This document shows positions 1 through 35,939 of a stretch of 64,000 nt of DNA, piece after piece; position 1 is the first letter of the stretch, and each line of letters begins with the position of its first letter. Position numbers and translations under genes: made by a program. The notes under the pieces are model-generated. The model ran no database searches. It was not told where the DNA came from and worked only from the letters and a program-made list of their open reading frames with translations. This DNA is from Coleofasciculus sp. B1-GNL1-01 (lineage in GTDB: Bacteria; Cyanobacteriota; Cyanobacteriia; Cyanobacteriales; Coleofasciculaceae): NCBI GenBank assembly GCA_040220235.1, contig JAVJTO010000102.1; one strand, written 5' to 3'.

Positions 1-914
1 ATGGGGCGTTAGCGGAACGGGCGATTATTCCCATATTACCGCCGCAAAATGAGTTTCCTTATGTGATTCGGGTGGTATCGGAGGTGCTATCCTCCAATGG
101 TTCAACCTCGATGGGTTCGGTGTGTGGATCGACGCTAGCTTTAATGGATGCTGGGGTGCCAATTACCAAGCCTGTTAGTGGGGCGGCGATGGGATTGATA
201 AAAGAAGGCGATGAAGTCCGCATTCTCACTGATATTCAAGGGATTGAAGACTTTTTAGGCGACATGGACTTCAAAGTCGCGGGAACGGATAGCGGAATTA
301 CCGCGTTACAAATGGACATGAAAATCACCGGGTTGTCCATGGACACCGTTGCTAAAGCGATTGAACAAGCCAAACCAGCGCGACTGCATATTTTAGAAAA
401 GATGCTGGCGACAATTGACAAACCCCGTCCTGATTTGTCGGCGTTTGCGCCACGCTTGTTGACGATGAAGATTGATCCGGACTTAATTGGCTTGGTGATT
501 GGTCCTGGCGGTAAGACGATTAAAGGGATTACCGAACAAACCGGTGCCAAAGTCGATATTGATGATGATGGCACGATTACGGTTTCTGCGGTTGAAGGGG
601 AAAAGGCAAAGAAAGCGATTACCCTGATTCACGGGATGACCCGTCGCTTAGAAGAAGGGGATGTTTATGCAGGGCGCGTGACACGGATTATTCCCATTGG
701 TGCGTTTGTGGAAGTGTTACCGGGGAAAGAGGGAATGATTCATATTTCCCAACTGGCAGATTATCGGGTCGGTAAGGTCGAAGATGAGGTGGCTGTTGGC
801 GATGAAGTGATTGTAAAAGTTCGCGAAATTGACAACAAAGGTCGGATTAATCTGACTCGTTTGGGAATTCATCCCGATGAAGCAGCCGCAGCGCGTGCAG
901 CAGCGACAACTTAG
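1..914 (+). CDS. pnp: Polyribonucleotide nucleotidyltransferase, C-terminal part (runs off window start)
   Basis: The frame is open from base 3 ([10 protein letters not shown]...[18 protein letters not shown]). It shows the [12 protein letters not shown] motif, a KH domain ([10 protein letters not shown]) and an S1 domain (GMIHISQL). Confidence 0.97.
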
Positions 915-938
915 ATAGTTTTGGAGTTAGCTGAACGT

Positions 939-1041
939 TAAGCTGTAATGCATTTAAATTGGGTATTAGTAGCGAGCAAGATGCTCGCACTACAAGGATC
1001 TCGCAATTCTTGACATTATGGTTTAAATGCCGAACAGCTTA
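939..1041. mobile_element. MITE-like element (TAAGCTG...CAGCTTA ends) containing a GTAG REP hairpin
   Basis: Terminal inverted repeats, internal gtagcgagcaagatgctcgcactac, and an inverted homolog at 8149-8279. Confidence 0.7.
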
Positions 1042-1073
1042 AGTCAATTGTCAGTAAGCCTCAGCATCCGCCA

Positions 1074-1333
1074 AGAACTCAAGTTCTTGGCTAAAAGCTT
1101 AAGTCCATTAAAATAGACTAAAACTCTGATCCAGTCCGCTCAATTCTGACTTGAGTAGGGTGGGCATTGCCCACCAACCTTAAGTCGAATGCCACTGAAT
1201 TTAGAGTTTGTAGTCAGCGCTGTCCTCGCTTCTGGCACGCTTCGTGCCTACTAAGAACCCAGCTTAAGTCAGTGACTTCAGTCCATTAAAATGGACTCAA
1301 ACTCTGATCCAGTCCACTCGATTCTGACTTAAG
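1074..1333. repeat. Repeat cluster: two ~55 bp direct copies plus REP hairpins
   Basis: agtccattaaaatRgact..aactctgatccagtccRctc..ttctgactt occurs at ~1102 and ~1280. gtagggtgggcattgcccacc is at 1155. Bases 1074-1112 match the elements at 38859 and 40116 in reverse orientation. Confidence 0.7.
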
Positions 1334-1408
1334 CGTTTGCCCTTGGGTTTCAACCCAAGGCAATTTCAAGCAAGTGATACAAGATCTGATTCTTCGCTGA
1401 TTATCTTG

Positions 1409-2116
1409 ATGAACGATATCTATGGTGGCAAAACTCCCAGAGATATCCCCAACTACAGCATTGGGGACACCGCCCGCTACCTGAAAATTCCCGCCGCAAC
1501 GATTCGTTCTTGGACAGTAGGACGAAACTATCCTGTCAGCGAAGGCGAAAAGAAATTTTATCCCCTGATTGAGGTCAAAAAAAGCCAACCGATTCGACTG
1601 AGTTTTACTAATTTAATTGAAGTTCATATCCTGCGGGCAATCCGAAAACACCACAAAATTGACCTGGATAAAGTTAGAGCGACACTAGATTATATTGACG
1701 AACAACTGCAAATCCCTCACCCCCTCGCCCACCAAGAATTCCAGACGGATGGAATTGACCTATTTATTGAACGCTACGGTTCTCTAATTAACACGTCAAA
1801 ACAAGGGCAGACAAATCTCAAAGATGCCCTCAAAACCCACCTTGAACGCATCGAACTCGACGACAGGGGTTTAGCCATCAAACTCTATCCCTTTACCCGC
1901 AACGGCGAACAGGATAATCCTCGCTGGGTTGTGATTGACCCGCGTATTGCCTTCGGGCGTCTTGTGATTGCAGGAACTGGAATTCCCACCAGCATCCTCG
2001 CCGAACGCTATAAAGCTGGGGATTCCATCGATGATTTGGCTTATGATTATGATTGCGATCGCCTGAAAATTGAAGAAGCGATTCGCTGTGAAATGGATAA
2101 TCAAAAAGCTGCATGA
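1409..2116 (+). CDS. DUF433-domain antitoxin (VapB45-like, N-terminal HTH)
   Basis: YSIGDTARYLKIPAATIRSW is an HTH and IDPRIAFGRLVIAGTGIPT is DUF433. ATG 1409 is preferred over TTG 1337, which lies in a repeat. ATGA overlap with the next gene. Confidence 0.85.
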   Translation: MNDIYGGKTPRDIPNYSIGDTARYLKIPAATIRSWTVGRNYPVSEGEKKFYPLIEVKKSQPIRLSFTNLIEVHILRAIRKHHKIDLDKVRATLDYIDEQLQIPHPLAHQEFQTDGIDLFIERYGSLINTSKQGQTNLKDALKTHLERIELDDRGLAIKLYPFTRNGEQDNPRWVVIDPRIAFGRLVIAGTGIPTSILAERYKAGDSIDDLAYDYDCDRLKIEEAIRCEMDNQKAA

Positions 2117-2547
2117 GTGAACCGTCAACAGAAATCGTCTTCTTCATCGACAGATGTTTAGGAAAACGGTATATTGTCGAAGCCCTCAAAGACACTGGAA
2201 TTACTGTCGAAATCCATGACGATCACTTTCCTCAAGCAGCCCAAGATGTAACCTGGATGCCAGAAGTCGGAAAAAGGGGCTGGATTATTCTCACCAAAGA
2301 TGCCGCGATTGGGAGAAATCAACTGGAACGTCAAGCTGTCGCCTATGCAGGAATTCGTATGTTTGCCCTTGCCTCTCAAAATCTTTCGGGAAGAGAAATG
2401 GCTGAAATTTTTAGAGTTGCCATCCTCGAAATGCAGAAATTCATTGAAAAGAATCCAGCCCCCTTCATTGCTAAAGTCTATCGAGAAGGTAAAGTAAAAT
2501 CCTGGAAAACTCAAGCTGATCTCTTGGCAGAACTAGAAAAGGATTGA
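2113..2547 (+). CDS. VapC45-type PIN-like toxin
   Basis: FFIDRCLG...HDDHF...D..W...VGKRGWIILTKD motifs; translationally coupled to the DUF433 gene. Confidence 0.85.
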   Translation: MSEPSTEIVFFIDRCLGKRYIVEALKDTGITVEIHDDHFPQAAQDVTWMPEVGKRGWIILTKDAAIGRNQLERQAVAYAGIRMFALASQNLSGREMAEIFRVAILEMQKFIEKNPAPFIAKVYREGKVKSWKTQADLLAELEKD

Positions 2548-2558
2548 ACTTCACTTAA

Positions 2559-5500
2559 CTAATTAGAAATGCCGTCGCAGAGAGCGCGATCGCTTTCTCT
2601 CACGTTCGGGTTAGTCTTAAGGTAGTCTCGCGCCAAATTACACCCCTTTACTAGTAACTCATCTAAATCCAGACTCCACAGTTTAATTGTATTATCACCA
2701 CTTCCAGAGGCTAAGGTTTTTCCATCGGGGCTAAAACTTACACTCTTGACCCATGAATCATGTTCATTAAGGGTGGCAGTCGCTTCGCCTGTTTCTAAAT
2801 TCCACAGTTTAATTGTATTATCATCACTTCCAGAGGCTAAGGTTTGCCCATCGGGGCTGAAACTTACACTATTGAGCGATGAATCATGTCCATTGAGGGT
2901 GGTAATTGCTTCCCCTGTTTCTAGATTCCATAGTTTGATTGTATTATCACCACTTCCAGAGGCTAAGGTTTTCCCATCGGGGCTGAAACTTACACTATTG
3001 ACCAATGAATCATGTCCATTGAGGGTGGTAATCGCTTCCCCTGTTTCTAGCTTCCACAGTTTTATTGTATTATCGTAACTTCCAGAGGCTAAGGTTTTCC
3101 CATCGGGGCTGAAACTTACACTACTGATCCATGAATCATGTCCTTCTAGACGGTTGTATTCCCTCACAGGATTAACTGCCTGCCTAAGTACATTTGCAAC
3201 TCGTACTTTTGTCGCATGATCAAGCTGTTTCTCAGATATCTGTTTCAGTGGTATTCCTGCCTGTAAAGCAGCTATCAGTGCATCAAATATTTTATCCTGG
3301 TTGAAAAGTTCCTCTGCATATCGACTGAGACTATCACTTTGACCAATTTGAAGTTTTTCAGCTCGCCGCCTTTGAGATTCAGCTTGCCAAGTTAATCCAG
3401 CTAATCCAAATACAGCCACTACTGAACCCACTAATGCTATCCTAATAAACCGATTAAATCGTTGTTCACCAATTTGACGTTTCTCTTTCTCTATTGTTAA
3501 TTCTTCTAAAAGTTTAGTCGTCTGATTTTGTCGAATAAAGGGAACTAAATAATCGTGAACCAATTGATAACGGTCATCAGGAGATTCTGGTATCCGTACC
3601 ACTAACCCAGAATCCACTAAAATCGGTAAAACTAAATCATCTAATTGACGCCTTTTAACCTGTAACCCTGCGGCGGCTAAATCTTGGCTCAACTCACTGC
3701 GAGTCTTCAGGGGACGAGTTAGATTTTCAGCGGTTAGCCAATATAAAACCAGTCGAGTAATTCTGTCATTCTCTTGACCACAGTCTTTAATAACTCCCTC
3801 TAAATAGTGGTTGACCAATACTTCTTTAGGATTTTCACCTAGTCCTCGATACTGTTCTAGCCGAGTAATCTTCTTGTCCTGAAACTGTGCGCCAACTATC
3901 TGCAATTCAATCGGACGGACTGAATCCAACTCAATGGCTAAATCCTTAACCAGTTCCGTGATTAATCCAGGTTCTAAATAAAACTGGGAGCGTTGGGTTA
4001 ACCGTTCAATCACTAACCTGGCTTCCTCTGGGGTAAAGTTACCTAAATAACAGAGAATATCCTTATCTAAAATATTATGGTTGATGGCTCCCAGATAGTT
4101 CAGGCGATTACACTCTAATAGATAATGGAGATAGTCTTCTCGTAGAGACAGAATCAGTTTCACAAAGGGAATATCCAGGCAATCCGCCAAAAAACGATAA
4201 AATTCCTGTCGTTTTCCTGGGTCTTTAGCAATAAAGAAAAACTCTTCAAACTGGTCAAATATCAGAACCGTTACCCGGTTACGGTCTGCATTAGTCCGCA
4301 ATTGTTGGATAATGACTGCTGTTGAATTTAATGTTTCCCCTAATGCTTCTGCCAAACCCGTCCCCAAGGTTTCCACCCAATTGGTATAAATCCTGAGAAC
4401 CACAGGGAAAGCTTCGCGCTCTCCAATCAACTGTTGTCTCAACGCTGGAACTAATCCCGCCTGGATAATTGAACTTTTACCGACACCGGATTGACCATGA
4501 ATAATCGTGAGTTTATGGTCATTTCGACGGATTCGTTGGATTAACTCTTTGATCAACTTTTCTCGACCAGAAGCAGCGATTTCTTGGGCAATAATCGCTT
4601 GTTTATCCGTTGATGTCTCTGCCACATTAATCAACTGCTTTTTCGCTTGGAGATGAGACGCTCCCGCAAACGCCTGAAATCCATATTGATATTCAATCGA
4701 CCGTTTAGTTTGCTTCAGTTCAAATGCCTTCCGGTATTCTCCTTGCTCAAAATAAAGAGAGCGCAACATTGCCAAACTCTTGATATAAAGTTGAGGATCA
4801 TAGTCTGGCTGATTTCCCTCTATCCCTTGTTCTAAATGAGCAATCGCCGCTTTAATTTCCCCTAAAGACTGACAAGCACTGGCTAAAATAAAATGATAAA
4901 ACGTCTGTTCACGCGGATGACGTTCAGGACTTTGATTTAAAAGCGTCAGTGCCTGTTGAGCCAATTGTTTTGCCTCTTGCCAGCGCGACTGCTTCAGCGC
5001 TACTTCTGCTAACATTCCATAATCTTGAGCCACTTGTAGAGACGTGCCATACTGCTGATGCAACCTTTGAGCTGATTCAGCCAAATGCCTTAAATCATCC
5101 CAGTCTTGTAATTGTCGCAGAACTTCGGCAAAGTGGTGAATCGTTGAGGCAATTAAATCAAATCGTTGACCTTCAGCAAATTTCTGAATCGATTCCTGAA
5201 AATAATTTCTGCTTGTGCGCCAATCCTGCTCATCCTTCCCTGAATTTTGTTCAGCTTTGCGGGAATAACAGAGAGCGATATGTAAAAACAAAATACCCTG
5301 GCGTTCTAATTCCTCAGTATGGGCATCTATCAGCACATCCCGACAAGTCTGATAATGGGCTAATGCTTCATCAAATCGATGATGCTTAAAATCATTGAAG
5401 CCGCGCACAAATTCCAGATTAGCTGCCAACTCTGGCGCTATCTCTTGCCCTCGCTTTTGTAACGCTGTCCAGGCTAATTCAAGTTCATCATAATTGTCCA

Positions 5501-6026
5501 AAGAAACCGTTAAATCAGCCCTAAAGAGTTTCTCAGTTTCCTGGGTTAGAAATTCCAGCAATTCCGCCGTTGTCCATTGAAACTCAACCGTCGTCGCCCA
5601 GCTTTCCAAATCAGGCGCTACCCGAATCAACCTTTGCCAAACCGGATCATTCATCCAGAGAATCAGAGGAAAAGAAAAATTATGACTCAACTCCTCTCGG
5701 ATATAATTACTGGATTTGAAAACATCAGTGAGATTCCTAACCGACTCTAAACCCAATACAATGACAGCCTGAGGTGTTTCATCTGCCAATTCTGTCTTAA
5801 TAAACCTGTAGAGAGACTTCACCGACTCTGCCAAAACCAACTCGCGAATCGGCACCGGAGATACTTCTCGCAGACTTTGCACCATGCGCTGTCGTAATTC
5901 CCCATAATTACAGCGCACCAAAATCAGGCGAAACTGTCCCTGGGATAGCCGAAGCGATCGCACGAGGGCATTTAACGACTTCTGGTTATCCGCTATACTA
6001 TCATCTGGCTGGGGCGTATGAGTCAT
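2559..6026 (-). CDS. NLR-like protein: degenerate NTPase-like N-domain, TPRs, STAND (nSTAND1-like) NTPase, TM helix, 4 WD40 repeats
   Basis: Walker A GQSGVGKSS, Walker B VLIFDQFEEFF, LSLREDY, hydrophobic IALVGSVVAVFGLAGLTW, and GHDS..SVSFSPDGKTLASGS.DNTIKLW x4. Confidence 0.9.
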   Translation of the reverse strand: MTHTPQPDDSIADNQKSLNALVRSLRLSQGQFRLILVRCNYGELRQRMVQSLREVSPVPIRELVLAESVKSLYRFIKTELADETPQAVIVLGLESVRNLTDVFKSSNYIREELSHNFSFPLILWMNDPVWQRLIRVAPDLESWATTVEFQWTTAELLEFLTQETEKLFRADLTVSLDNYDELELAWTALQKRGQEIAPELAANLEFVRGFNDFKHHRFDEALAHYQTCRDVLIDAHTEELERQGILFLHIALCYSRKAEQNSGKDEQDWRTSRNYFQESIQKFAEGQRFDLIASTIHHFAEVLRQLQDWDDLRHLAESAQRLHQQYGTSLQVAQDYGMLAEVALKQSRWQEAKQLAQQALTLLNQSPERHPREQTFYHFILASACQSLGEIKAAIAHLEQGIEGNQPDYDPQLYIKSLAMLRSLYFEQGEYRKAFELKQTKRSIEYQYGFQAFAGASHLQAKKQLINVAETSTDKQAIIAQEIAASGREKLIKELIQRIRRNDHKLTIIHGQSGVGKSSIIQAGLVPALRQQLIGEREAFPVVLRIYTNWVETLGTGLAEALGETLNSTAVIIQQLRTNADRNRVTVLIFDQFEEFFFIAKDPGKRQEFYRFLADCLDIPFVKLILSLREDYLHYLLECNRLNYLGAINHNILDKDILCYLGNFTPEEARLVIERLTQRSQFYLEPGLITELVKDLAIELDSVRPIELQIVGAQFQDKKITRLEQYRGLGENPKEVLVNHYLEGVIKDCGQENDRITRLVLYWLTAENLTRPLKTRSELSQDLAAAGLQVKRRQLDDLVLPILVDSGLVVRIPESPDDRYQLVHDYLVPFIRQNQTTKLLEELTIEKEKRQIGEQRFNRFIRIALVGSVVAVFGLAGLTWQAESQRRRAEKLQIGQSDSLSRYAEELFNQDKIFDALIAALQAGIPLKQISEKQLDHATKVRVANVLRQAVNPVREYNRLEGHDSWISSVSFSPDGKTLASGSYDNTIKLWKLETGEAITTLNGHDSLVNSVSFSPDGKTLASGSGDNTIKLWNLETGEAITTLNGHDSSLNSVSFSPDGQTLASGSDDNTIKLWNLETGEATATLNEHDSWVKSVSFSPDGKTLASGSGDNTIKLWSLDLDELLVKGCNLARDYLKTNPNVRESDRALCDGISN
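2670..3150 (-). repeat. Four near-identical 126-bp WD40-coding repeats
   Basis: ccagaggctaaggtt recurs at 2704, 2830, 2956 and 3082. Confidence 0.92.
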
Positions 6027-6109
6027 GGATCAATTTTATGCGATTCGCGTGCATCTTAACCGCGTAAATTCTCTAATCTTCATCTTAATCCCTAAATTCC
6101 GTCAATTTC

Positions 6110-6390
6110 GTAGGGTGCGTTAGCGAAAGCGTAACGCACCGAATTCTACCCAATCTAAAACGCACCGCATCCTACCCAATCCTCAACGCACCGCATCCGC
6201 TACTCATCCCAAATTCCCCCAGGCAAATCAGGAACTTCACTCACCCCCCAATTTTGCGAATAAATCCCCTGTGCCATCAACCGATGAAGACTAGAAAATT
6301 CCCACTCCTGGAGAACAGAACACAATCCATGTTTTACCGGATTATAGTCCAAGATTATTTGGTGCGTTACGCTTCGCTAACGCACCCTAC
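6110..6390. mobile_element. REPIN-like element: inverted GTAG REPs enclosing a RAYT fragment
   Basis: gtagggtgcgttagcgaaagcgtaacgcacc (6110-6140) and ggtgcgttacgcttcgctaacgcaccctac (6361-6390). Confidence 0.8.
6200..6349 (-). pseudogene. C-terminal fragment of a REP-associated tyrosine transposase (RAYT)
   Basis: Manual translation gives DYNPVKHGLCSVLQEWEFSSLHRLMAQGIYSQNWGVSEVPDLPGGIWDE*, matching the RAYT YNPVKHG..W..SS.H....G.Y...WG signature. No start codon and no HUH motif. Confidence 0.8.
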
Positions 6391-6484
6391 AATTACTACA
6401 ATTACTTGTTTCTTGCTCCCCTCTCCCCAAGGGTGGGAGAGGGGCTGGGGGTGAGGGGTTGAGCTTAAATAACATCATTGAACT

Positions 6485-7777
6485 CTACAATTCTGCGGCT
6501 TCCGCCAACATGGGATTAATGTCAAACCAAGACCCCTGAGAATCTCGATATTCAAAGACGAACATATCGCGAATCAAAATTTGATATTTCTCTTCTCCTC
6601 TTAAACTTTTCTGCTGCGCTACCTCCCGCAAATAGATCCACTCATCCTCGGTAATGGCTAAGGTTAATTCATTTCGCCGAAACCGAATAATATCTTCAAG
6701 ACAATCTCGTGAAAAGGGTGGATCATCTCGCTCAAGACATCGGTTGATTAGCATGAGTAATTGCCGTGCGTGTCCACCACTGATTTGACACAATCGTTTT
6801 AACGTATCGGGATGATCAAAGAGTTCTGATATCGAATCTAGGCGCTGAACCGGATTCATATCTGGAAACGCCCTCGCTAATACCATTTGTTGCAGCAGCG
6901 CTATCCCTTCTTGACATTCACCTCCTTGGCGCAATTGCACGGGAACCATGGGTAATATTTTGGGATCAACGCCAAATCGATTGGTTAATCGTCCCAAAGC
7001 ATTGGAAAAAATCAAGAATAAGGGAATGGTATAAACAACGTGACAATTCAGTTGTTTTAATTGTTCGCCTCGGTCTACAAATAGGTAAACAGGCTGAAGC
7101 TCACCTGTGGGTTTAATCGTGTTATCCAAGCGGTCAAGATTATCGATAATTACCACTAATCCTTTTTTGCCAATTCGCTTCAGTTTCTCCGTAGCAGGTG
7201 TTAAGAGTTCCTGATTAATTGCCTTTAAAATCCCATTGGTGCGCGGTTCTAAATACTGGCGTAACTGAGAACGCAGCCGGGGGCTGTCTTTCATCTTGGT
7301 GGTAATTTCAGCAATTCCCCCAGGTAGGGAAAACTTGGCTTCGGATAACTCGATGGGGGTTTGCAAGAAATCGCCCATCTCGCGAAACAGGTTGACAAAA
7401 TAGGCGGGTTGTAGTTTGATTTTAACCGCTTCCAAACTTTCTGCCACCGATCGCGCGATCGCGAGTAGGATATCTGTCACGTCAACGTCTGCCATTTCTA
7501 AGACGTGGCTAGACTCAAAATACACAACATGACAGCCCTGTTTCTCTAATCCCAGCTTGAGTTGCTGCAATTCCGTAGACTTGCCACAACCGATATGTCC
7601 GGTAAATAATTGGCAGGTTGGTTTATTGGGAGATAGTCGAGTAATAGTTCTACCGATCTCCTTAATCGTATTACCGCCACGCACCGAGGAAAAATCGATA
7701 TAATACTTCTGATCCTGGGGATTGGCAAATTTCAGGGGACTTGGGTTACAGGCTTGATAGAACTGCGCGATATCCAT
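6485..7777 (-). CDS. P-loop/AAA-family ATPase
   Basis: Walker A GHIGCGKSTEL and Walker B VVIIDNLDR; 430 aa. Confidence 0.88.
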   Translation of the reverse strand: MDIAQFYQACNPSPLKFANPQDQKYYIDFSSVRGGNTIKEIGRTITRLSPNKPTCQLFTGHIGCGKSTELQQLKLGLEKQGCHVVYFESSHVLEMADVDVTDILLAIARSVAESLEAVKIKLQPAYFVNLFREMGDFLQTPIELSEAKFSLPGGIAEITTKMKDSPRLRSQLRQYLEPRTNGILKAINQELLTPATEKLKRIGKKGLVVIIDNLDRLDNTIKPTGELQPVYLFVDRGEQLKQLNCHVVYTIPLFLIFSNALGRLTNRFGVDPKILPMVPVQLRQGGECQEGIALLQQMVLARAFPDMNPVQRLDSISELFDHPDTLKRLCQISGGHARQLLMLINRCLERDDPPFSRDCLEDIIRFRRNELTLAITEDEWIYLREVAQQKSLRGEEKYQILIRDMFVFEYRDSQGSWFDINPMLAEAAEL

Positions 7778-7782
7778 GAATT

Positions 7783-7970
7783 TAAGTGGGTGGACACAAT
7801 TAAAGTTAACGGTTGAGATCAGGGAATAGGGAATACCTCGGTTTCGCTCGGTAACACGCTCGGTAACACGCTCGGTAACACGCTCGGTGTGTCACAGGGA
7901 ACAGTAAGGGTTTGAGGGTGATTTACTTGCACTTGTCAGAGCGTGCCGCTTTCTTTTGTCTGACTACTTA
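7783..7970. mobile_element. MITE (TAAGTRG...CTACTTA) with internal tandem repeats
   Basis: Terminal inverted repeats, internal gggaata heptamers and cgctcggtaaca x3. Relatives at ~8352, ~21690, 30531 and 38241. Confidence 0.7.
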
Positions 7971-8148
7971 TTCGTTGAACCATAACCTTATTCACCTTTG
8001 ACCATTTACAGGAAAAAACTGTATTAGGTAGAGTTTACACCAGTGGAGAATTGGACATCAACGTCGCGTTTATTTAAATAATATATGCCGTTCGTAGGGG
8101 CGCAAAGGCTTGCGCCCTTTATAAAATGTTACGAACGAACCCGATTAA

Positions 8149-34635: not shown

Positions 34636-35625
34636 ATGAGAACACCTTCTTTATCGGTGATGTACAAAAGCAGCAAGCGGATTATTACCCAAGCCCTCTT
34701 GCTGACTTTGGCAACAGCGGCATTTTTCTTCATTAGTGATATTTCCCTTCCCCAGTCGGCGGCGGCTTATCCGTTCTGGGCGCAGCAAACCGCCCCGGAA
34801 ACTCCCCGCGAAGCGACTGGAAGGATTGTTTGTGCTAACTGTCACCTCGCAGCCAAACCCACAGAAGTGGAACTTCCCCAATCCGTTAAACCGGATACCG
34901 TCTTTGAAGCTGTGGTAAAAATCCCCTATGACCTGGATACCCAACAGGTCTTAGGAGATGGTTCCAAAGGCGGTCTGAATGTCGGCGCTGTGGTCATGTT
35001 GCCCGAGGGGTTTAAAATTGCTCCCGAAGACCGCATTCCTGAAGAATTACAGGAAGAAGTTGGCGGACTTTACTTCCAGCCCTATAGCGCCGACCAGGAA
35101 AACGTAGTGATTATTGGTCCCCTACCGGGTGAACAGTATCAAGAAATTGTTTTCCCGGTTCTTTCTCCGAATCCAAAAACGGAAAAAGATGTCCATTTTG
35201 GTAAATACTCGGTTCACGTTGGCGCTAACCGAGGTCGTGGTCAGGTTTATCCGGCTGGGAATAAGAGTAACAACACGGTCTACAATTCAGCAAAAGCCGG
35301 TTTAATTTCTCAAATTACCAAGTTAGAAGAAGGCGGCTACGACGTTACTCTTCAAACCCCTGAAGGTGACACAGTTGTAAATACCATTCCCGCAGGACCG
35401 GAATTAGTGGTTTCCGAAGGGCAAGAAGTCACCGCAGGTGAAGCGTTAACCACTGATCCTAATGTGGGTGGATTTGGTCAAGTAGACGGCGAAATTGTCT
35501 TACAAGACCCGGCTCGGATTAAGTGGCTAATGGTCTTCATTGTTGCGATTATGTTTTCTCAACTCTTCCTCGTCTTGAAGAAAAAGCAGATTGAGAAAGT
35601 ACAAGCGGCTGAAATGAATTTCTAA
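34636..35625 (+). CDS. petA: Apocytochrome f
   Basis: YPFWAQ, CANCH and [16 protein letters not shown]. Confidence 0.98.
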
Positions 35626-35667
35626 GTCCAGCGCTTATTCATCCCAGTCAACTCGCTTGATTCAACC

Positions 35668-35703
35668 AAATAAGGGACAGGTTAGCTAACCTGTCCCTTA
35701 TTT
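35668..35703. terminator. Palindromic, probably bidirectional terminator
   Basis: aaataagggacaggttag/ctaacctgtcccttattt between convergent genes. Confidence 0.7.
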
Positions 35704-35765
35704 TATCAGTGCTATCGGAGCTTTATGAGATTGCTTTCACTCCAGACAAGAGTCCTGAGTAGTTA

Positions 35766-35939
35766 CTACTCAGCCTCTTTTTCTTCGCCTTCACCTTCAT
35801 TTTCATTTTTGTTATCACGATTCCCATAAAAACGTTTGTTTCTTGAGAATGATGAAGAAGAAGACTTCTTGCGAAACTGTCGAGCATAGGCTTGGTTGCG
35901 AGAGGCTTTCTCTTTTTTCAAATTACGGCGTTTAGCCAT
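35766..35939 (-). CDS. Small basic hypothetical protein
   Basis: MAKRRNLKKEKASRNQAYARQF; RBS ggag; downstream of rbp. Confidence 0.7.
   Translation of the reverse strand: MAKRRNLKKEKASRNQAYARQFRKKSSSSSFSRNKRFYGNRDNKNENEGEGEEKEAE

Follow-up and report, generated by a model that had tools for sequence, protein, structure and literature searches.

The 64,000-nucleotide stretch of contig JAVJTO010000102.1 from the cyanobacterium Coleofasciculus sp. B1-GNL1-01, referred to here as the window, holds two genes on its minus strand. Gene A encodes a P-loop ATPase. Gene B, downstream of A, encodes a multidomain protein that begins with a predicted dead AAA+ fold (the N-domain) and continues with TPRs, an nSTAND1 NTPase, a hydrophobic helix, and WD40 repeats. 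A and its N-domain-bearing partner B are a real, intact, and conserved two-gene module. With moderate confidence, the pair is interpreted as a conserved two-gene switch in which A likely docks on the dead N-domain, which would couple sensing by B to the ATP cycle of A. The module probably serves to sense non-self. In plants, animals, fungi, and bacteria alike, NLR-like STAND proteins have a central place in immunity, which raises the question of how a sensor nucleotide-binding oligomerization domain (NOD) is wired to an output without an effector domain. The module offers a defined and very common candidate answer, in which a dead AAA+ domain is proposed to recruit a conserved Orc1/Cdc6-like ATPase.

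The association of A with N-domain genes is repeated many times over. The host genome (8.66 Mb in 172 contigs) has 11 close copies of A including that of the window, and the ten paralogs are 49–61% identical to the window A; two distant copies (32–33%) and one fragment are also present. An N-domain gene lies directly downstream on the same strand for 10 of the 11 close copies, and the eleventh ends 954 bases from the end of its contig, where there is no N-domain match. The full-length partners in this genome are 1155–2017 residues long, and all of them align to B from the N-domain through the WD40 repeats. Across 26 public loci, the gene directly downstream of the A relative is an N-domain gene in 21, and the partners have the same full architecture wherever the contig is long enough. 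The remaining five comprise two loci where the contig ends within 660 bases (L043, L049), one with a truncated A (L045), and two with other genes next (L044, L027). Identity matrices of A and the N-domain are correlated with r = 0.88 over 24 pairs, a value reached by 0 of 2000 permutations. This co-variation shows co-inheritance, not contact.

The pairing extends to distant members of the family, where the partner becomes simpler. Both distant A copies in the host genome precede TPR-only proteins, and the N-terminus of one of these partners aligns to the N-domain of B (25% identity, E 7e-6), with FxLLFVRC, GLE, and RAPDFxxW in common. In 19 other genomes, 20 loci have a member of the distant subfamily of A (33–36% identical), and at 19 of these loci a distant N-domain gene comes directly after it. 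These partners are TPR-only proteins or an N-domain alone, and 13 of the 20 still match the window N-domain by BLASTP. The smallest natural pair is found at L060, L064, L065, and L067 (about positions 1272–1930 in each), where the partner of ~205 residues is the N-domain by itself. A locus of Prochloron has an A and N-domain pair at 22% (A) and 23% (N-domain) identity. Since only the N-domain is retained in the partner across these levels of divergence, the constant core is A plus the N-domain, and what follows the N-domain changes. The preliminary description of this DNA, made from the sequence alone, had treated the two genes as one module, and the co-occurrence of A and N-domain genes across genomes and deep divergence bears this out. 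The TPR-only and N-domain-only partners are minimal versions suited to biochemistry.

A is also found as part of longer chains. There are 53 such proteins, with A N-terminal in 18 and C-terminal in 35, and the N-domain profile finds no N-domain in 52 of them. This absence fits an N-domain that is required as an adaptor only where A is a separate protein, and we infer that role for it. A second STAND-type NTPase is present in three of the four fusions checked with Pfam: A is followed by nSTAND1 in P0281 and by AAA_35 in P0286, while in P0275 a STAND module and TPRs come before A; the fourth has no Pfam match. The only one of the 53 that the profile does hit, P0325 (2045 residues), is a chimera: residues 1–200 of A run on into the back half of an N-domain (profile positions 147–254) and then into nSTAND1-WD40, which looks like the product of a deletion that merged both genes.

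The N-domain, B residues 1 to ~190, matches no Pfam family. Its structure was modeled with AlphaFold2 (AF2) on residues 1–200 from a 41-sequence alignment, with a predicted local distance difference test (pLDDT) score of 89.5 and a predicted template modeling (pTM) score of 0.84. The topology is an N-terminal helix, five beta-alpha units, and two further helices. At E ≤0.001, Foldseek matches the model to 29 solved chains, of which the top-ranked are all AAA+. They include the delta-prime-like protein 2gno (E 3.3e-5), RAD17, RFC1, ORC3, MuB, RuvB, and Hda, together with Rif2 and Sir3, whose AAA+ folds are inactive. By VIA-align, TnsC is matched with Z 11.2 (root-mean-square deviation 3.2 Å over 135 residues) and Avs5 with Z 10.0, and all 50 matches listed are AAA+ or STAND domains. 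An AAA+ fold without Walker A is therefore predicted for the N-domain with high confidence, and the P-loop fold lacking Walker A suspected in the preliminary description is supported by both the model and its best structural matches. A TIR or flavodoxin-like fold, suggested by the five beta-alpha units, was ruled out because all listed fold matches are AAA+.

Alignments of the N-domain place RCNY at the position of the P-loop and GLE at that of Walker B, both family-wide, and N107, R110, E112, and F113 are nearly invariant. With an AAA+ fold and RCNY and GLE replacing the motifs, the N-domain is predicted to be unable to bind nucleotide canonically. At the sequence level, the N-domain profile gave only chance matches to TPRs, all above E 0.05, against the sequences of solved structures, and the ESM Atlas returned only unnamed cyanobacterial clusters. 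The family has 956 cluster representatives at E ≤0.001, and among the best 150 of these every protein of at least 700 residues carries nSTAND1. One B-type gene elsewhere in the host genome (G000 C164:73784–79219) has its N-domain split by an insert of ~127 residues, matching residues 1–77 and then 83–200, with no A beside it.

Gene A is, judged by its motifs, an intact P-loop ATPase. In an alignment of 33 sequences of paralogs and homologs, G60, H61, G63, G65, K66, and S67 of Walker A are invariant, as are D212, N213, L214, D215, and R216 of the Walker B region. Two further motifs, CH..YT.P (residues 245–252) and SGGH.R (333–338), are likewise invariant. The AF2 model (pLDDT 89.9) consists of a nucleotide-binding domain, a helical lid, and a C-terminal winged-helix-like part. 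The insert between Walker A and Walker B is modeled as soluble helices with a disordered stretch at 143–153. The fold matches include TnsC (Z 15.6), PABY2304 2qen (Z 15.1, 306 residues aligned), Cdc6/Orc1 proteins (Z 14.7–14.9, Foldseek E 4e-6 to 1e-5), and SSO1545 2fna (Z 14.6). Matches at Z 10–12 are to NOD modules from plant NLRs, Dark, CED-4, MalT, and Avs3. The Orc1/Cdc6 plan of AAA+ base, lid, and C-terminal winged helix is seen in A at the fold level only; the A profile has no match with E <0.03 among the sequences of solved structures, which gives no sequence-level membership of Orc1/Cdc6.

Family profiles place A among generic P-loop ATPases. In Pfam, KAP_NTPase (PF07693) is passed marginally (22.8 bits against a cut-off of 20, E 6.5e-5), ATPase_2 (PF01637) scores 25.2 bits, below its cut-off of 33.2, NACHT scores 13.1 bits, below 26.7, and matches to AAA_22 and AAA_16 each lie under their own cut-offs. 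A scan of NCBIfam gave no family for A. A resembles KAP in its Walker B, which is of the DxLDR type, and in the long insert that separates this motif from Walker A. KAP NTPases have transmembrane helices inserted in the P-loop domain, whereas the insert of A has none: hydropathy was searched for inserted membrane helices and the maximum for any 19-mer of A was 1.47. The archaeal ATPases of PF01637 resemble A over the whole length of the fold, through 2qen and 2fna, although the profile score is under the cut-off. The fold matches favor Orc1/Cdc6 and PF01637-type ATPases over KAP, whose profile score is marginal. Neither the PF01637 nor the KAP family is characterized by an obligate N-domain partner.

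Behind the N-domain, B has the layout of a sensor. TPR families of Pfam fall within residues about 215–440 (TPR_12, E 1.7e-14). The nSTAND1 family (PF20703) is matched with E 3e-34 and 119.7 bits against a cut-off of 27.1, and both Walker motifs are intact, with GQSGVGKS at residue 511 and VLIFDQFEE at 587. This Walker A is conserved in 29 of 29 relatives and Walker B, by a strict pattern, in 26 of 29. PF20702 (nSTAND2) is not among the matches listed for B (25 of 68 families), and none is listed for A either. NCBIfam gave only repeat or P-loop noise for B. The most hydrophobic 19-mer begins at residue 860 with a Kyte-Doolittle mean of 2.19, and in the window copy 5 and 4 lysines or arginines flank the helix on its two sides. 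Much of the preliminary description was accurate on these points: it had reported a 430-residue ATPase, whose GHIGCGKS and VVIIDNLDR are intact and invariant in 33 sequences, and, in the second gene, TPRs, an intact STAND NTPase, a helix, and WD40 repeats, on which Pfam, motifs, and hydropathy agree.

The WD40 repeats of B start at residues 962, 1004, 1046, and 1088 and are encoded by a tandem array with a 126-nucleotide period (2671–3143, 90% matches). Variability is concentrated at positions 3, 5, 7, 23, 39, and 42 of the 42-residue unit. The number of repeats differs between orthologs. There are four in the window copy and four in L025; by pattern, there are five in L026 and nine in L050, where the pattern misses some units, and the lengths of these two proteins (1372 and 1462 residues) suggest about 9 and 11. 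That a truncated B accounts for only four repeats was rejected, since the final repeat and the C-terminal tail are conserved in longer orthologs.

The family is widespread, and its parts evolve at different rates. Of 201 genomes sampled from the phylum, 51 were found to have A, usually as several copies and with a genome size of more than about 4.5 Mb. Every sampled genome of four families has it (24/24, 8/8, 4/4, and 3/3), and it is found in 0 of 73 genomes of another family. Across orders, A remains 67–80% identical. The family also exists outside cyanobacteria, as indicated by two findings in the gammaproteobacterium Thiomargarita: an A copy of 58% identity at a contig end (L043) and, on another contig, a 1697-residue N-domain open reading frame (ORF) with no A in the 1.5 kb upstream (G201 C136, L052).

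Compared with the L025 ortholog, DNA at window positions 1–2400 (PNPase, DUF433, PIN) is 99.2–100% identical, and that at ~2400–7800 only 85–95%. That identity falls so abruptly at the edges of the module, in strains that are otherwise near-identical, suggests a role in recognition or conflict for the window paralog. Codon differences to L025, given as synonymous/nonsynonymous in crude counts, not as a model-based dN/dS, are 50/11 for A, 21/7 for the N-domain, 29/41 for the TPRs, 53/35 for nSTAND1, 11/16 for the linker, and 27/40 for the WD40 repeats. These counts indicate that A and the N-domain are under purifying selection and that the TPR and WD40 parts change fast. Eleven paralogs, a strain-variable number of WD40 repeats, and a module more diverged than its flanks would make a bacterial parallel to the receptor repertoires of fungi and plants.

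The preliminary description had proposed that A hetero-oligomerizes with the inactive N-domain. In the mechanism favored here, A would likewise dock on the dead N-domain as on a fellow protomer, much as active AAA+ subunits dock on their inactive neighbors Orc2/3 or delta-prime of the clamp loader. Binding of a ligand to the WD40 repeats, the TPRs, or both would drive oligomerization of nSTAND1. The oligomer would cluster or release A, and A, with its winged-helix-like end, would execute or gate the response. With no effector domain found in the pair, A is the sole candidate for the output. An active ATPase beside a nucleotide-free AAA+ fold is a theme that the pair has in common with the origin recognition complex (ORC; Orc2/3), clamp loaders (delta-prime), and Sir3/Rif2. 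The pair differs from these machines in having no sequence relationship to them and no DNA-replication context, and in carrying its dead fold on the same chain as a sensor NTPase. The likeness is structural, and the interface is a putative one.

A more far-reaching version of this mechanism is decidedly unlikely. It holds that A and the dead AAA+ domain are an ancient, portable hetero-AAA+ switch core, constructed in the manner of ORC or a clamp loader with a single dead subunit, which cyanobacteria have mounted on varied sensors, and of which the nSTAND1-WD40 form would be an effector-less NLR with two NTPases. The output would be A itself, loaded onto DNA or the division machinery and arresting the cell that sensed non-self, and the eleven copies would be a receptor repertoire.

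Several observations weigh against docking of A on the N-domain as the basis of a non-self switch, and they bear on the alternatives as well. A comparison of the N-domain and A profiles gives a probability of 2%, that is, no detectable relationship. A and B could instead be co-inherited members of one pathway that make no contact, the N-domain being an autonomous regulatory or oligomerization domain of B and A working at another site, such as DNA contacted by its winged helix. The lack of sequence similarity between the two profiles is consistent with this, as is the conserved RCNY loop at the P-loop position, which could bind another ligand. The alternative is nevertheless very unlikely, given that the N-domain is the sole part of the partner kept at all three levels of divergence, even as a stand-alone protein of ~205 residues beside A, and that it does not occur in 52 of the 53 longer chains that include A.

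Other observations against docking come from genes that stand without their partner and from the lack of an effector. Full-length B-type genes without an adjacent A occur in the host genome on C51 and C164, and in L050 (7939–13224) A is cut to its first 72 codons beside an intact B of 1462 residues; B can thus persist without its own A. At L027 (5104–9262), also from Coleofasciculus, a 91%-identical A forms the C-terminal half of a 956-residue ORF, in frame behind TPRs, with a CHAT (caspase-like) gene upstream and a Uma2 gene downstream of A and no B-type gene. No effector domain was detected in A or B by Pfam or PADLOC. A could instead be a regulator or resetting chaperone that would bind the dead AAA+ domain and so hold B off, license its assembly, or dismantle its oligomers after signaling. 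The output would then be the B oligomer, for instance through perturbation of the membrane by its helix. Persistence of B beside the decayed A of L050 agrees with such a role, and A is far more conserved than the sensor parts of B. The structural relatives of A are loaders and assembly factors (ORC/Cdc6, TnsC, RFC), and a two-step NTPase threshold is proposed for ParA-STAND grafts in the portion of a preprint that was available (bioRxiv 10.64898/2026.10.19.760177). However, in the distant subfamily the partner of A is a TPR-only or N-domain-only protein, which offers no NTPase for A to regulate, and no output domain was found in B either. The regulator is a rather doubtful alternative to A as the output.

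Two features of B itself also speak against a general membrane-bound sensor with a complete propeller. A comparable helix, 349–431 residues past the nSTAND1 Walker A, is present in 17 of 27 partners of at least 1100 residues; in the other 10 it is not found at that place, within the stretch searched. Membrane anchoring or spanning thus cannot be general. The membrane-spanning nature that the preliminary description gave the system stands as a prediction for the window copy and falls away for the family. Four WD40 blades alone cannot close a standard seven-bladed propeller, so the window copy may be a contracted or weakened allele.

The genomic context also weighs against a conflict system. For 16 related loci, 33 of 54 flanking ORFs were scanned; most belong to metabolism or to two-component systems, and a caspase-type neighbor was seen in only two of these loci (L031, L039). 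The CHAT protein of L027, as a single query and hence a weak test, found no similar neighbor by tblastn in 26 related loci or in the flanks of 12 loci of the host genome. The paralog on C31 (G000 C31:26606–35819; L013, L051) is divergent from an ftsQ-like ORF and ftsZ (ftsZ at 34863–35819), with the ftsQ-like ORF placed between ftsZ and A, and its ortholog in L049 shows the same adjacency. This adjacency fits a cell-biological role and raises the alternative of a link to cell division; the ftsQ-ftsZ-linked member is a different paralog from that of the window. Among the anti-phage STAND systems of PADLOC-DB v2, such as Avs and bNACHT, none is matched by A or B. The best match for A is mad8 (E 1.7e-4, 19 bits), and B is matched only via its WD40 repeats (HEAT-ARM_XIII) and short P-loop stretches. 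The defense role that the preliminary description named as one option (defense or signaling) was not borne out, with no effector domain found and flanking genes that are mostly housekeeping.

These observations raise an explanation in which the module serves not conflict but housekeeping or developmental signaling in filamentous cyanobacteria. It might act in cell division, in the integrity of the filament, or in communication between cells, and the window would hold a diverged paralog. In its favor are the C31 paralog beside ftsQ-ftsZ with its ortholog in L049, the 67–80% identity of A across orders together with its presence in all sampled genomes of four families, and flanks made up mostly of housekeeping genes and histidine kinases with no effector. 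It is rather unlikely, as it sits poorly with eleven copies in one genome whose sensor repeats differ in number and sequence, with a module 85–95% identical between flanks of 99–100%, and with nonsynonymous changes that exceed synonymous ones in the TPR and WD40 parts. Caspase/CHAT genes that adjoin some loci, including loci in a supplement table of PMC8195603 as far as that table was available, also stand against it.

The module is a variant within STAND/NLR-like systems, and the window holds one of its eleven copies. Fungal NACHT-WD40 proteins (HNWD/NWD, HET-E type) are said to be non-self receptors, in work ascribed to Dyrka and colleagues in 2014. B resembles them in its near-identical WD40 units, in a number of units that varies between close strains, and in variability at few positions per unit. 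It differs in that its NOD is nSTAND1 and not NACHT, no HET or death domain was found, and a transmembrane helix and a partner ATPase are present. Paired or helper NLRs, such as plant and animal sensor/helper pairs and NAIP-NLRC4, consist of two NOD-type ATPases. A and B likewise place two NOD-type ATPases side by side, one variable with a sensor and the other conserved. Unlike in those pairs, the conserved partner A is without sensor or effector, and pairing would use a dead AAA+ domain and not two active NODs.

The nSTAND1 family was named by Kaur, Iyer, Burroughs, and Aravind (eLife 2021, PMC8195603), and the statements on that work given here refer to the parts of the article and supplement that were available. 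B shares with the nSTAND1 conflict systems described there the PF20703 domain, the core 'nSTAND1+TM+BetaPropeller', which is among the architectures listed in supplement fig2-data1, and an enrichment in filamentous cyanobacteria. Catalogued members usually begin with an effector or adaptor (caspase, TIR, HTH, EAD), whereas B begins with a dead AAA+ domain and TPRs beside a separate upstream ATPase. Pfam and PADLOC, run on A and B, detected neither an effector nor an effector-associated adaptor at the N-terminus of B. Four rows of fig2-data1, from two Nostoc strains, give '<-TPR+nSTAND1+BetaPropeller<-AAA_22' beside caspase-bDLD3 genes, and a Nodosilinea row gives 'TPR+nSTAND1+BetaPropeller' with an unlabelled upstream gene. 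The pair is thus already visible in this part of the supplement, as context only and with the N-domain unlabelled; the available passages of PMC8195603 contain no discussion of the upstream ATPase or the N-domain.

Other STAND systems with a second NTPase offer partial comparisons. A two-step NTP-dependent threshold is proposed in the available part of bioRxiv 10.64898/2026.10.19.760177 for ParA-STAND grafts, which include nSTAND1. These grafts and the nSTAND2 two-gene system of PMC8195603, as far as described in the parts at hand, combine a STAND NTPase with a second NTPase, as do A and B. In the present pair, the second NTPase is Orc1/Cdc6-like, separately encoded, and matched by a dead AAA+ domain. 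Of the ternary iSTAND system (MoxR-vWA-iSTAND; Kaur et al. 2020, PMC7159879), no MoxR or vWA gene was found among the window neighbors or the 33 flanking ORFs of 16 loci. The pair had been put forward as an uncharacterized system, and PADLOC, NCBIfam, and paper searches indeed gave no match to a characterized one. Literature searches found no paper on the pair; subscription journals and further supplements may hold more.

Table 1. Positions of the two genes, their parts, and neighboring features in the window.
Feature	Position	Strand	Basis or remark
Gene A, Orc1/Cdc6- or archaeal-ATPase-like AAA+/STAND-type ATPase	6485–7777	minus	ORF, 430 residues
Walker A of gene A, GHIGCGKS, residues 60–67	7577–7600	minus	Motif and family alignment
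Walker B region of gene A, VVIIDNLDR, residues 208–216	7130–7156	minus	Motif and family alignment
Spacer between B and A, 458 bases	6027–6484		Palindromic and tandem repeats
Gene B: N-domain, TPRs, nSTAND1 NTPase, hydrophobic helix, four WD40 repeats	2559–6026	minus	ORF, 1155 residues
B N-domain, predicted AAA+ alpha/beta core and first lid helices, residues 1–~192	5451–6026	minus	Alignments, AF2
B TPR region, about residues 200–460, fast evolving	4647–5429	minus	TPR families
B nSTAND1 NTPase module, residues 487–828	3543–4568	minus	PF20703
B predicted transmembrane helix, residues 860–878	3393–3449	minus	Kyte-Doolittle
B four near-identical WD40 repeats, residues 962–1129	2640–3143	minus	Pfam WD40, E 2.2e-53
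DUF433/HTH_66 gene	1337–2116	plus	Overlaps PIN_10 by 4 bases
PIN_10 gene	2113–2547	plus	Directly downstream of gene B, convergent

As the preliminary description had stated, the two ORFs are co-oriented and repeats lie between them. The spacer contains two copies of a palindromic unit, with arms at 6110–6144 and 6354–6393, and a 26-nucleotide tandem repeat. Because tblastn matches to A and the N-domain are at most 9 bases apart in 9 of 21 related loci, the spacer is an insertion in the window copy. No terminator-like site on the minus strand was found within it, and a scan for promoters and terminators gave counts at chance level.

The genes around the module in the window are those of PNPase, the DUF433-PIN_10 pair, a histidine kinase, sucrose synthase, an M32 peptidase, GNAT, and CarB. 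The DUF433/HTH_66 and PIN_10 pair looks like one of the toxin-antitoxin type, and its proteins are 100% identical to those of the pair in L025.

Transcript data are available from four metatranscriptome runs, in which contigs of 93–260 nucleotides match parts of B and a little of A at 95–100% identity. None of these contigs spans the spacer, and DNA carry-over is possible, so they say nothing on expression level or co-transcription. The summed contig depth in these runs is in the thousands at 6327–6513 and 7636–8000 and in the tens to hundreds over the genes. Such depth implies that the short palindromic elements at these two places are multi-copy and present in RNA libraries. At 7845–7888, ~70 bases upstream of the start of gene A, there is a perfect 12-nucleotide tandem repeat, CGCTCGGTAACA, in 3.7 copies.

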